Shown: positions 53,350 to 56,813 of the stretch, piece by piece
Layout of the letters: each line of letters begins with the position of its first letter
How positions within the stretch are numbered: the first letter of the stretch is position 1
Translations under genes and position numbers: made by a program
NCBI GenBank assembly: GCA_964543535.1
Contig: CAZIYS010000001.1
Coordinates: 195,159 to 259,158 of the forward strand
DNA from: an uncultured Gammaproteobacteria bacterium
GTDB lineage: Bacteria > Patescibacteriota > Microgenomatia > UBA1406 > GWC2-37-13
Length of the DNA stretch: 64,000 nucleotides
Direction: 5' to 3'
The notes under the pieces: model-generated
Told to the model about the DNA's origin: nothing
What the model saw: the letters and a program-made list of their open reading frames with translations, nothing else
Database searches by the model: none

Positions 53350-53979
53350 ATGAAAAAAATATTTGCTTTTTTCGTTGTTATTTTTTCATTTCTTGCCATA
53401 ACTGTTTCTGCTTCTGCCGGTTGCGGCGGACAGTACGAATCCCCTTGTCAATCGTATTCAATATTGGTTGATAAGATGGTCGCAAAACCAGGTACTGAAA
53501 ATTATGTAGATAATTTATCAATCTCTGATTATCCTCGCTTTGCACCTGGTCAAACTGTTTTATTTAAAGTGACTATAAAAAATACCTCAACCACCACTTT
53601 TGGCGGCATGACTGCCAAAGATTTTGTTCCGGATTATTTAACTCCTATTGAAGGACCTGGAACCTTTGATTCAACTACCAGAACAATTTCTTGGGATGCT
53701 GGTTTTTTTAATGTTGATGAACAAAAAACCTATTATTTTAAAATGCAGATTAACTCACAAGCCAATTTACCAGCTGATAAGGGTTTATTTTGTCTCGTAA
53801 ATAAAGCTCAAGCATGGTCAAATACTACAACTGATGACGACACATCTCAGCTTTGTGTCGAAAAACAGGTAGTTGGCGCTCCAAAAGTCCCTTCTGCCGG
53901 ACCGGAATTAGGAATACTATTACTTTCAGGTCAGGTAGCCTTATTAGGCGTTGGAATATACCTTAAAAGAAAAGTTTAA
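53350..53979 (+). CDS. secreted surface protein (DUF11-like repeat domain) with C-terminal sorting-signal-like tail
   Basis: Signal peptide. FKVTIKNTSTTTF...DFVPDYL. C-terminus is VPSAGPE, then a TM helix, then KRKV. Confidence 0.6.
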   Translation: MKKIFAFFVVIFSFLAITVSASAGCGGQYESPCQSYSILVDKMVAKPGTENYVDNLSISDYPRFAPGQTVLFKVTIKNTSTTTFGGMTAKDFVPDYLTPIEGPGTFDSTTRTISWDAGFFNVDEQKTYYFKMQINSQANLPADKGLFCLVNKAQAWSNTTTDDDTSQLCVEKQVVGAPKVPSAGPELGILLLSGQVALLGVGIYLKRKV

Positions 53980-54145
53980 TTTCTTACTCCATTTAATCAT
54001 TTCGTCATTTGTTCATTTTTTCATTTATTTGATTATTAGATTATTTGTTTATTTGATTATTTATTAGTCCTGTATTTCTTCGAAATAGGTCTATGTGTTT
54101 TCCTTGTGCATAAAAAAACCTATCTTTTCCCAATCAGCACTATAA

Positions 54146-54174
54146 TTGATTTTTGACTCTTGATGTGCTATACT
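54146..54174 (+). promoter_or_regulatory. strong sigma70-like promoter with extended -10
   Basis: TTGATT, 17 nt, (TGc)TATACT. Confidence 0.55.
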
Positions 54175-54180
54175 ATGGGG

Positions 54181-54486
54181 CATATGAAAACAGTTTTGCT
54201 GAGACTGGTTTCGTTGATACCCAAGGAGAGGATTGTAATTAAAAAACTACGATCTTGGCCTTGGGTTTTTGCGTATAGAAGCTTGATCTCAGGGATCGAG
54301 GGATAGGAGAATGAATCAGCACCTATCCCCCGTTTCTTGGGGTTAAAATCTCAAGTTTTTCCCGCCGAAGGGGCGGGACCAAAAAGGAAGTTGTGACAAT
54401 TAGCCGTCACAAATCTTCCTTAATGGTAGATCGTGACGGAAATGAGTTGTTCATAAGCTAGAACAACTATTGAAAATATTTTTTTC
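54181..54486 (+). ncRNA. candidate structured non-coding RNA (~300 nt), class unknown
   Basis: Downstream of the promoter lie at least 5 stable hairpins: 54220-54265, 54300-54329, 54361-54377, 54386-54419, 54445-54468. A T-run follows at 54479-54485. No ORF with an SD. Confidence 0.35.
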
Positions 54487-54815
54487 CGTCGCACGTTTAC
54501 AAAATGGGTTTACCCGAACAAATTTTTTCTCGGGAATCAATAATAGCTATTGAAGAACCGAAAATTTCGACGGGTATTTTACTCGAAAGAGTAAATCAGG
54601 TTACTATATTTTATATGGGCATTTTATGGGCACATGGGAAACATGGCAGATTTGAACACGAACCTGAAAATCATCATCCTTTCTTTCCGAAAGAAATAAT
54701 TCTAGAAATAGGATTATTTTAAGTAGGGAAAGATTGGCTTGCACTTTGGCGCTAACTAATCGTTAGCCTCAGAGAGCAAGTCAATCTAAAAATCAGAAAA
54801 AGGAGAAAATGAAAA

Positions 54816-54962
54816 ATGAATACAATCGTATCAGTAGGTCTGAGTGGCCTTTTAACATGGGCACTCAAAAAAACATCCAAAGACATTGGGAATAAAATCC
54901 CTTTGTTAATTTGGATAATTATTTTCGTTGTGTTTGCGATTGGTTTCGCAAACATTAAGTAA
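54816..54962 (+). CDS. 48-aa two-TM peptide (not in the ORF track)
   Basis: SD aggag 10 nt upstream. MNTIVSVGLSGLLTWALKKTSKDIGNKIPLLIWIIIFVVFAIGFANIK. Confidence 0.4.
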   Translation: MNTIVSVGLSGLLTWALKKTSKDIGNKIPLLIWIIIFVVFAIGFANIK

Positions 54963-55115
54963 GATCGCCTTTTGAAAGGAGGTGATAAATAAGAAAAAGG
55001 GAGTGTACTCAACCCCTACTTACACCATACGGTGTAGATAATTCCAACAGGCCTGCAAAAGGTACTGACGGAAAACGAGAGAAAACGAAAAGTAAGATAA
55101 GAACAAGGAGTTAAA

Positions 55116-55796
55116 ATGAACCCGCAACTAGGACGACAGCAACAACAAGCACCCGCCGCAGCCGCACAACAAGCGCCGCAACCAGGACAGCAACCGCGCC
55201 CACAGCAACCGACGTGGTTTGCTCGAAACCGAAATTGGGTGATCCCTATGATCATCTTGATCGCAATCGTTTTTTGCCTTTCCTGCTTGGTCATCACAGG
55301 CCTCGTTGGATATGCATTCACGCGATCCGCCGCCGCTGTTCCCACCGCCCCGTACGCCCCCCCCGCTTCAACCGAAGCCCCCGCTCTGCCCACCCCCGCC
55401 GCGCCCGCGAATTCCTCATGTCCCACCACTCAAGAGGCCAAGAACCTCACTGGTGTTGACGTCCAACGCTTAGGCACAGAACCTTGTGCTTGGGTTTGGA
55501 GAGGAGTTCCCCCTGCCACTACGTTCGCCCGCTGTCCATCTGGATTCGCCTGCACCTGGGATGTCGTCAACGACATAACTGTTGTGCATTCTGGCGTCAA
55601 CCAGACTGCTGAAATTCACGCGGGAACGTGGAGATTTGTGGCGGCTTACCCGACCAGTGATGCAGTGCACGATATTTGTGCGCTCTATCAGAAAGAAAAG
55701 GCCTTCGGCTTGTCCGAAGTTCCTAGCTTTCAGGTTAGGTTTCAGTCCGTCACAGACGGCTCTTTGGGCCCTATTGGTCCGCAAACCTGTCCGTAA
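55116..55796 (+). CDS. GC-rich foreign-looking gene: Gln/Pro/Ala-rich tail, one TM helix, Cys-rich ectodomain
   Basis: SD aaggag 7 nt upstream. 226 aa. Six ectodomain Cys. Base composition is sharply different from the flanks. Confidence 0.6.
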   Translation: MNPQLGRQQQQAPAAAAQQAPQPGQQPRPQQPTWFARNRNWVIPMIILIAIVFCLSCLVITGLVGYAFTRSAAAVPTAPYAPPASTEAPALPTPAAPANSSCPTTQEAKNLTGVDVQRLGTEPCAWVWRGVPPATTFARCPSGFACTWDVVNDITVVHSGVNQTAEIHAGTWRFVAAYPTSDAVHDICALYQKEKAFGLSEVPSFQVRFQSVTDGSLGPIGPQTCP

Positions 55797-56048
55797 AAGG
55801 ACGTGAATGTGCCGTGCCGGCACTGTATAAGTATCCAATCGGATACTCGGCACAACCTGCAACCCACTGAGAGACTGAGAGAAATCTCAGAAAAAAGGAG
55901 GAAGAAGCTCTGTTATGTTTTTTGTTTGAACCGGAAGGTCAATTGCAGCCATTCGGCTCCAATTGCTTTCCGCAATTCAAACAAACTCATAATATCTTCT
56001 CCTCTTTTTTCTCATAATCATCAAGCACTTGGTGGTTATAGGAAAAAT

Positions 56049-56813
56049 ATGAAAACAATAAGTTTTGTCATCCCCGTTTATAACGAGGAAAAAAGAATTG
56101 AGAAGACTTTTAAAGCCTTGATGAAAGGTGTCTCTTTTAATGGGATAAAATTGGAAAAAGTAATTTTTGTCGACGACGGAAGTAGAGACGAAACAAAATC
56201 AAAAATCCAAATGACAAAATCTAAACTGGTAAGAAAATTAAAGGCAAAAATAAAGATAATCTCTTACAGTAAAAATCGCGGTAAAGGACATGCCATAAAA
56301 AGAGGCATGTTGGTTTCTAAATCAGATTATACTCTGATGTTTGATGCTGATATGTCAACTGAAATTAAAGAGTTAAGGAAGTTTTTATCTTTTATGAAAA
56401 AAGGTGTTGATATTATCATCGGCACCCGCAAAAACGGAGAGTCAACCGTCATCAAACACCAACCATTGTACCGTGAGCTTTTGGGACGCGGTTTTACCCT
56501 TTTATCAAACATTATCCTTGATACCTGGGTGACGGACTTTACCTGTGGATTTAAAGTTTTTTCAAAATTCGCCAAAAATAGAATTTTTGAAAATACTATC
56601 ATAGACCGTTGGTCATATGACGCGGAAATTATTTATCTGGCCAAAAAAATGAATCTGCTCATTCAAGAAAAATCTGTCGTCTGGAAAAATGATCCTCAAA
56701 CAAAAGTTGATTTAGCAAAAGATTTGCCTCAAACTTTAACTGACCTTATTAAAATAAAAATTCATGACTACAACTTACTAATTTCATTTTCTAAAAAACC
56801 AGCATTCATATGA
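56049..56813 (+). CDS. GT2 glycosyltransferase (polyprenyl-phosphate glycosyltransferase-like)
   Basis: ISFVIPVYNEE, VDDGSRDET and FDADMS motifs. ATG at 56049 is preferred over the track start at 55803. Confidence 0.85.
   Translation: MKTISFVIPVYNEEKRIEKTFKALMKGVSFNGIKLEKVIFVDDGSRDETKSKIQMTKSKLVRKLKAKIKIISYSKNRGKGHAIKRGMLVSKSDYTLMFDADMSTEIKELRKFLSFMKKGVDIIIGTRKNGESTVIKHQPLYRELLGRGFTLLSNIILDTWVTDFTCGFKVFSKFAKNRIFENTIIDRWSYDAEIIYLAKKMNLLIQEKSVVWKNDPQTKVDLAKDLPQTLTDLIKIKIHDYNLLISFSKKPAFI

Follow-up and report, generated by a model that had tools for sequence, protein, structure and literature searches.

What is made from a strong promoter that is followed by several hundred nucleotides of hairpins and by no convincing open reading frame (ORF)? 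The question is raised by a locus of Candidatus Roizmanbacteria (Microgenomates, candidate phyla radiation (CPR); host genome of 1.0 Mb, 97% complete) that lies in a stretch of 64,000 nucleotides of contig CAZIYS010000001.1 (positions 195,159 to 259,158 of the forward strand). This whole stretch is referred to below as the window, and coordinates are those of the window. A first-pass annotation, made from the sequence alone, had described an extended -10 promoter and a hairpin-dense transcript of about 300 nt (54146-54486), which was thought to be either a novel small RNA (sRNA) or a long regulatory leader of foreign-looking genes downstream. We found that this stretch makes up only the front half of an element of ~630 nt, extending from 54181 to ~54805, and that, as judged from sequence comparison, the element represents an RNA family that is real, conserved, supported by covariation and not represented in Rfam. 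On balance, we lean toward the view that 54181 to ~54805 is one multi-domain untranslated 5' leader of a surface-glycoprotein/glycosyltransferase operon, which would regulate this operon in cis in the manner of boxA leaders. We lean to the same modest degree toward a leader that, together with the spacer behind its first small ORF, reaches 55115.

A BLAST search returned one close copy (G019, 95% identity), and other congeners matched only in the promoter and the first transcribed bases. Reading of the congener loci revealed a collinear hairpin-rich RNA of 0.55-0.9 kb, in which the promoter and the first transcribed bases were kept and conserved blocks continued far beyond 54486. Homologues were present in at least 14 Roizmanbacteria/Microgenomates genomes from at least four genera, and in 10 metagenome contigs. 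A covariance model (R1), built from the part after 54487, matched 12 of 43 genomes of the genus at E<=0.01 (one of them weakly); it also matched three further genera strongly and two weakly. Among 80 candidate metagenome loci, the returned part of 120 stretches reported by a pattern scan, 10 were true homologues by the same model. All these counts are minima because a divergent subtype (G003, G013) was missed by the model. The element occurred in a single copy per genome; a second, weak match of the model in the host's own genome (contig 5, E 1e-3) was located behind a tRNA, shared no common architecture and was discarded.

The promoter was recovered where it had been placed earlier, and transcription would start near 54181. 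Similarly, the elevated G+C content of the stretch held (0.417 for 54175-54486 vs 0.348 for the whole window), and the five stems listed by the first-pass annotation were all found at their positions. The features of the front half are given below; MFE denotes the minimum free energy fold, and A7 an alignment of the window-type 5' half.

54146-54174, plus strand: sigma-70-type promoter with extended -10, TTGATT (54146-54151), 17 nt, TGcTATACT (54166-54174)
54181-54214, plus strand: 5' hairpin h0, in the MFE fold; helix 2 of A7, 88% of cells paired
54219-54270, plus strand: T1, hairpin resembling an intrinsic terminator, with base ACCCAAGG/CCUUGGGU, an inner stem and then U5; its stem is cccaagg (54220-54226) / ccttggg (54259-54265), followed by T5 at 54266-54270
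54283-54346, plus strand: long imperfect hairpin with gggatagg/cctatccc (repeat I1; 54300-54307 and 54322-54329); A7 helix 4, 23 pairs, 97.8% paired, 2 compensatory
54361-54377, plus strand: GC hairpin CCCGCC-GAAGG-GGCGGG, stem cccgcc (54361-54366) / ggcggg (54372-54377); in the fold and as A7 helix 5
54386-54419, plus strand: hairpin GGAAGUUGUGAC / GUCACAAAUCUUCC, stem ggaagttgtgac (54386-54397) / gtcacaaatcttcc (54406-54419); in the fold and as A7 helices 7 and 8
54433-54492, plus strand: P3, outer helix GUGACGGAAA / UUUCCGUCGC, A7 helices 9 and 10 with 2 compensatory pairs; stem agttgttc (54445-54452) / gaacaact (54461-54468)

The stretch 54175-54495 had an MFE of -126 kcal/mol compared with -82 +/- 5 for 100 dinucleotide shuffles (z -8.6), and the z value of the whole element (54181-54815, 635 nt; 20 shuffles) was -10.8. 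The length of about 300 nt did not hold, as conserved structure continued to ~54805 and the element was about twice as long. The run of seven T near the supposed end had been correctly located (54479-54485) and fell away as an end point: within P3, whose inner hairpin is AGUUGUUC/GAACAACU with loop CAUAAGCU, it belongs to the 3' side of the domain and pairs with GACGGAAA (54435-54442), and is thus not a terminator.

The window-type 5' half was shared only with G019 and the metagenome loci L124 and L175, in which all five stems were kept. In A7, which contains only four sequences and whose structure was derived from these same sequences, 96.6% of cells were paired compared with 38-54% when pairing partners were slid, and 12 compensatory pairs were counted compared with 0-3 in the slid controls. 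The remaining homologues carried another 5' half built on the same plan, with a 5' hairpin followed by a terminator-like hairpin; the first 40-60 nt differed between the two subtypes. The major type also contained a GC-rich nested hairpin, an analogous CCGCC/GGCGG hairpin and one that resembled P3, with AGCU in its loop. The palindrome AGCU was seen in the loops of two hairpins.

In T1, the segment 54219-54265 plus U5 has the stable G+C-rich hairpin and immediate U run by which intrinsic terminators are recognized, and 14 homologues had a comparable hairpin plus U5-U8 at +26 to +63 relative to the start. Its energy was -22 to -35 kcal/mol in 13 of these 14 (G147 had -12.6 kcal/mol), and compensatory changes were observed in 11 of 16 pairs. 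When the sequences were read by eye, no upstream antiterminator strand able to pair with the 5' half of the T1 stem was found. A long-range pairing of the invariant AUACCCA at the terminator base with UGGGUAU after the boxA-like block (see below) was considered and dropped, as it was uncompensated in G147 and G003.

T1 raises the possibility that only the first ~90 nt are functional, as an sRNA terminated intrinsically at 54219-54270; the remainder would then be a separate leader or several unrelated elements. The likeness of the hairpin and U run to an efficient intrinsic terminator, its retention in 14 homologues and the missing upstream antiterminator strand all speak for such an sRNA. Under this explanation the conserved downstream domains would have no transcript, since no promoter-like site lies between the hairpin and these domains. 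Besides, in the major type GGGACGAAAC before the terminator-like hairpin is complementary to GUUUCGUCCC beyond it, and the two were paired in single-sequence folds, which ties both sides of the hairpin into one fold; it is also the 5' 40-60 nt that vary between subtypes. We therefore regard a ~90-nt sRNA as unlikely.

The second half of the element begins with the boxA-like block and contains the following features.

54491-54509, plus strand: boxA-like block GCACGUUUACAAAA followed by UGGGU, the most sequence-conserved block among 16 homologues compared
54511-54576, plus strand: three-tier long hairpin with apical loop AAUAGCU
54578-54595, plus strand: 7-bp hairpin with a GAAA loop; helix 3 of alignment A4, 5 of 5 pairs compensatory
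54597-54666, plus strand: helix CAGGUU / AACCUG, sequence-conserved, closing a loop predicted to be largely unpaired
54677-54805, plus strand: three-way junction; in its outer helix, UCCUUU is paired with the AAAGGA that overlaps the Shine-Dalgarno (SD) sequence AAGGAG (54800-54805)

Each of 14 homologues folded alone into the same three-tier hairpin (A4 helices 1 and 2), in which 12 of 16 pairs showed compensatory changes. From boxA to CAGGUUA, 88% of cells in 14 sequences were paired, compared with 30-46% with slid partners; changes on both sides occurred in 17 of 21 pairs compared with 4-10 in slid controls, and none of 500 shuffles was as good. The helix CAGGUU / AACCUG showed no covariation, its sequence being conserved. 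Its loop holds AUGGGC, AUGGGC, AUGGGA and AUGGC (54615-54649) together with the conserved UUGAACACGAA. UGGG was found 4-9 times per leader compared with ~2 expected, mostly as single-stranded (A/U)UGGGCA; these repeats would likely be a protein-binding platform. In the three-way junction, the inner hairpins are closed by UUUCC/GGGAAAG and by GGCUUGCACUUUG / CAGAGAGCAAGUC, and the architecture with AAGGAG in the closing helix was seen in all 11 homologues folded singly. The pairing probability of the SD sequence in the window was 0.82. In these alignments, covariation supported the predicted structure along its whole length and in every domain.

The minus strand folded nearly as well (z -8.2). 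As this makes energy undecisive, the strand was assigned from the promoter, the G-U pairs and synteny. The same value counts in favor of selfish GC-rich palindromic repeats or mobile-element relics that fill an intergenic gap and have no RNA function. Such repeats are very unlikely here, because the genome holds a single copy, the modules follow one another in a fixed, collinear order from genus to genus, pairing is preserved by compensatory changes, and G-U pairs give the better fold on the plus strand.

No known RNA family accounted for the element when covariance models were compared with it. With Rfam 15 at the gathering threshold, only three tRNAs were detected in the window; at E<=10, the region 53900-55150 gave chance-level matches (the best had 24 bits vs a threshold of 64), and at E<=0.1 nothing was found in nine homologous loci. 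This comparison included transfer-messenger RNA (tmRNA), RNase P, signal recognition particle (SRP) and 6S RNAs, EAR, OLE, GOLLD, ROOL, raiA, HEARO, riboswitches and T-box elements. In line with the earlier impression that a tmRNA signature was missing, ARAGORN found no tmRNA in the window, and the tmRNA of the genome was located on contig 8. In the host genome, 16S rRNA and tmRNA were found, and there was no match for RNase P RNA of types A and B (RF00010, RF00011), 6S RNA (RF00013), small SRP RNA (RF00169) or the RnpA protein. As RNase P, SRP and 6S RNAs were all undetected, the element might be taken for a very divergent member of one of these housekeeping families. That it matched no Rfam model even at E<=10, that the conserved P4 of RNase P and domain IV motifs of SRP RNA were absent by eye, that it was not found in near-complete congeners, that its distribution was patchy and tied to one operon, and that its 5' half was replaced between subtypes make such an identity hardly conceivable.

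The same comparisons upheld the absence of a convincing ORF, since the frames of small ORFs were not conserved in relatives, and the candidates 54160-54306 and 54504-54722 were rejected as genes for this reason. The 72-aa ORF had no Pfam match, stops interrupted the ORF frame in G019 and G012, and the 5' ORF (48 aa) was frameshifted in G017 by a 1-nt insertion, with the nucleotides otherwise conserved.

The following features lie behind the element.

54816-54962, plus strand: the ORF next to the leader, which encodes a poorly conserved hydrophobic peptide of 48 aa, single-pass and with no Pfam match
54963-55115, plus strand: untranslated spacer, conserved with G019 and metagenome locus L175
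55116-55796, plus strand: GC-rich (0.57) gene whose product is membrane-anchored and rich in Gln, Pro and Ala; glycosyltransferase genes (GT2, then GT1) come next

Conserved structure ended at the ribosome-binding site of the small membrane-peptide ORF (~54805), so that the SD sequence is part of the closing helix of the last domain, which supports a leader. Comparable small hydrophobic ORFs followed the junction in G017, G031, G115 and G011, and none in G019. The GC-rich gene is the likely cargo. In seven related genomes, the RNA was followed first by small ORFs (hydrophobic or zinc-ribbon), then by a GC-rich gene (0.50-0.57) for a membrane-anchored protein, GT2, sometimes GT1, and finally a membrane protein of 950-1340 aa. 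Upstream of the RNA, a DUF11 surface-protein gene was visible in five of the seven, and the RNA thus kept a fixed place between DUF11 and the GC-rich gene; a SpoU methylase on the opposite strand, ahead of the DUF11 gene, was visible only in some relatives. Whether the RNA always accompanies the downstream GC-rich gene was checked at the 12 loci for which 3 kb of sequence was available downstream, and all 12 had a 500-nt segment of 0.50-0.62 GC within 0.25-1.7 kb downstream, the loci themselves having 0.34-0.44 GC.

A promoter scan of the plus strand found no promoter-like site in 54610-55223, and no terminator was detected after the junction, the last domain. Because of these two observations we favor a leader over a gene of its own; together with the conserved gene order, they also indicate that the downstream genes are native, and the earlier suspicion that these were foreign was not sustained. 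As to the choice between sRNA and long leader offered by the first-pass annotation, the leader stood, since structure reaches the ribosome-binding site without a terminator and the GC-rich gene follows at all 12 loci; for the first ~90 nt, a stand-alone small RNA ending at the early terminator-like hairpin is possible, if unlikely. A search for inverted repeats that might form a leader-trailer helix around the GC-rich gene gave only scattered, non-nested 15-17-mers inside the coding region, and no inverted repeats were found between the leader and the spacer 55797-56049.

Several further observations were made in this region. The block 54996-55100 of the first spacer was conserved with G019 and L175 and contained small hairpins, for example GGGAGUGUACUCAACCCC. 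At 54973-54986, GAAAGGAGGUGAU is a perfect complement of the 3' end of 16S rRNA and is not followed by a start codon; G147 has the near-identical GAAAGGAGGUGAUAAAUG where its last leader domain ends, ahead of a short ORF. A ribosome standby site or the remnant of a small ORF that has decayed may explain these sequences. Another untranslated spacer of 250 nt (55797-56049), with several hairpins, separates the GC-rich gene from the true GT2 start (ATG 56050); the listed 336-aa ORF from 55803 probably starts too early. In G165 (L052, ~1840-2020), the truncated last leader domain was followed by a small gene that by eye resembled a four-helix bundle of the 23S rRNA intervening-sequence type.

The boxA-like block would link this leader with antitermination. 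It is located directly 3' of hairpin P3, in an untranslated stretch downstream of a promoter, and appeared accessible, as only a marginal 5-bp A/U hairpin was predicted over it. In rrn leaders, too, a hairpin precedes boxA (PMC5725501, PMC6614797). The published boxA consensus is UGCUCUUUA (PMC6614797), and that of gamma-proteobacteria GYTCTTTAANA (PMC5725501). Blocks of the homologues included GCUCUUUAACAAAAUGGGU and GCUCUUUGAAAA, and the canonical GCUCUUUAA was present in some relatives. GCUCUUUAACA in G197 and GCUCUUUAAAA in G008 matched GYTCTTTAANA at 11 of 11 positions, GCUCUUUGAAA in G148 at 10 of 11, and GCACUUUAACA, found in four other homologues, at 10 of 11 with A at position 3. The boxA of the host's own rRNA leader was GCUCUUUGACAA. 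A rough estimate by hand gave ~0.02 as the probability that a 12-mer with at most two mismatches occurs by chance within 600 nt. A search that covered NusB and NusG showed that NusB (90 bits) and one NusG are encoded in the genome. Based on these comparisons, it is likely, if unproven, that the block is boxA-like and is probably bound by NusB/S10. Among the papers covered by our literature search, none linked boxA or antitermination with CPR bacteria.

When the 19-mer pattern of boxA plus UGGGU was searched in 185,579 genomes, matches outside Microgenomates fell in coding sequence and were dismissed as chance. The tmRNA gene of the host (G000:C8:4064) contains GCACUUUUAAAAAUGGCUUAG, which resembles the block and the bases next to it, probably by coincidence. 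In another genus, L055 (G197:C9, ~1340-1720) had the same promoter type and a canonical GCUCUUUAACAAAAUGGGU block followed by a hairpin; by eye, its neighbors were a HicA/HicB-like pair upstream and an NYN-domain-like gene downstream, which suggests that the boxA-plus-UGGGU module may serve other operons too.

A boxA-like block also brings up the possibility that the element is a stable noncoding RNA (ncRNA) in its own right, which is cut from the operon transcript or shares it and acts in trans or as a ribonucleoprotein (RNP). BoxA is typical of untranslated stable RNAs (PMC6614797) and would aid the making and folding of a long RNA. The conserved multi-domain structure of 550-900 nt with lineage-specific inserted hairpins, the invariant single-stranded blocks and the enrichment of UGGG, with a possible protein site on the UGGGCA repeats, point in the same direction. 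However, neither a terminator nor a conserved end follows the last domain, and the closing helix uses the SD sequence of the next ORF in several homologues. The element is also strictly tied to one operon, present in a single copy per genome and not found in near-complete congeners. A stable ncRNA of this kind is possible, if rather doubtful.

Under the preferred reading of a cis-acting leader, the following sequence of events may be proposed. T1, ~40-90 nt after the start, would attenuate transcription, so that only part of the polymerases continue. After P3, the boxA-like element would recruit NusB/S10 and other Nus factors, as in rRNA leaders, and elongation modified in this way would resist pausing and termination through the hairpin-rich leader and the GC-rich operon; boxA and Nus factors may also chaperone the folding of the downstream RNA domains. 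Finally, the closing helix of the three-way junction would hold the SD sequence that belongs to the first small ORF and thereby set translation initiation, and probably mRNA stability as well.

Several observations weigh against the leader as proposed. The block in the window (GCACGUUUACA) agrees with only 8 of 11 positions of the gamma-proteobacterial consensus, and the window and most members of the genus have A at position 3, where U is usually invariant (GCAC, not GCUC). The block is situated ~310 nt from the start and downstream of T1; as T1 lies upstream of it, the block cannot explain read-through of T1. The Rho RNA-binding domain had no match in the 97%-complete genome, so that the classical anti-Rho role of boxA may not apply. 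SD pairing averaged 0.77 compared with 0.55 +/- 0.17 at 19 other AAGGAG sites of the genome, a modest difference, and in about half of the homologues no start codon follows the junction-closing AAGGAG, which suggests that the closing helix is first of all structural. Near-complete congeners G009 and G022 have the DUF11 gene and no such RNA after it. Known leaders of this kind need less conserved structure than the ~600 nt present here, and the start, ends, processing and read-through of the transcript are inferred.

A broader proposal, which we hold tentatively and consider possible at best, is that the element represents a new class of large (0.55-0.9 kb) Microgenomates RNAs and is more than a passive leader, namely a Nus-assisted self-folding riboregulator or RNP that senses a signal and gates the surface-glycoprotein operon at both termination and translation; such an RNA might accumulate as a stable RNA. 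Sensing could rely on a protein or ligand that binds the UGGGCA repeats or the conserved loops of the junction.

The region upstream of the promoter was also conserved in part. The site 54105-54113 (plus strand), 33 nt 5' of the -35 element, reads TGTGCATAA and fits the DnaA-box consensus TTATNCACA; TGTGNATAA occupied the equivalent place in 14 of the 16 homologues that were read, across genera. Genome-wide, only 29 such sites were observed vs 75 expected from composition. As far as sequence comparison can tell, the DnaA-box-like TGTGNATAA is a conserved context upstream of the promoter. Farther upstream, 54020-54066 consists of AT-rich tandem repeats with TTATTTGATTATT-type units, and relatives carry different AT-rich repeats there; these may be an UP-element or curved DNA. 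In G013 (L098, ~90-440 after the DUF11 gene), a stretch resembling an opposite-strand gene was found between DUF11 and the leader promoter.

The genomes of CPR bacteria are tiny, and their intergenic gaps are very short. Despite such gaps, this lineage keeps a folded RNA of 0.6-0.9 kb ahead of a surface-glycoprotein operon, whose genes probably shape host-cell contact. If the boxA reading is true, Nus machinery of the rRNA type would serve protein operons in a phylum with almost unknown gene regulation, apparently without Rho. The RNA family is well defined and supported by covariation, and would be suitable for an Rfam-style seed alignment.

Among known systems, antitermination in rRNA leaders (rrnTAC with boxB/boxA/boxC; NusB/S10/NusA/NusG; PMC6614797) shares with this locus a strong promoter, a long untranslated structured RNA, a hairpin directly before a block of the GCUCUUUAA type (with the canonical sequence in some homologues), the G/U-rich UGGGU behind it, and the encoded NusB and NusG. 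In contrast to rRNA leaders, the cargo here is a protein operon, the block is ~310 nt into the RNA with GCAC for GCUC in most genus members, and a leader-trailer helix was not found by the inverted-repeat search. The boxA in the 5' untranslated region of suhB in E. coli and Salmonella (Baniulyte et al. 2017, PMC5725501) is another case of a boxA-like element, conserved among relatives, in the untranslated leader of a protein gene, and further mRNA leaders with boxA have been predicted; the suhB boxA is close to the start codon and represses via Rho-dependent termination and translation (PMC5725501). Here, the block is ~300 nt from the ribosome-binding site, inside a large conserved structure, and Rho was not found. 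Processive antitermination of polysaccharide and surface operons is carried out by leader elements such as EAR RNA of Bacillales eps operons, RfaH/ops and LoaP. Similar to these, the present element precedes a long cell-surface glycan operon containing terminator-like hairpins; it matched neither EAR nor any other Rfam model and is far larger, and a single PF02357 match in the genome left no second NusG paralogue of the RfaH/LoaP type. The large ncRNAs OLE, GOLLD, ROOL, HEARO and raiA are similar in their size (0.55-0.9 kb), many covarying helices, modular inserted hairpins and narrow phylogeny. The element described here differs from them in having no Rfam match, in its fusion to a ribosome-binding site and association with one operon, and in its boxA-like block and early terminator.

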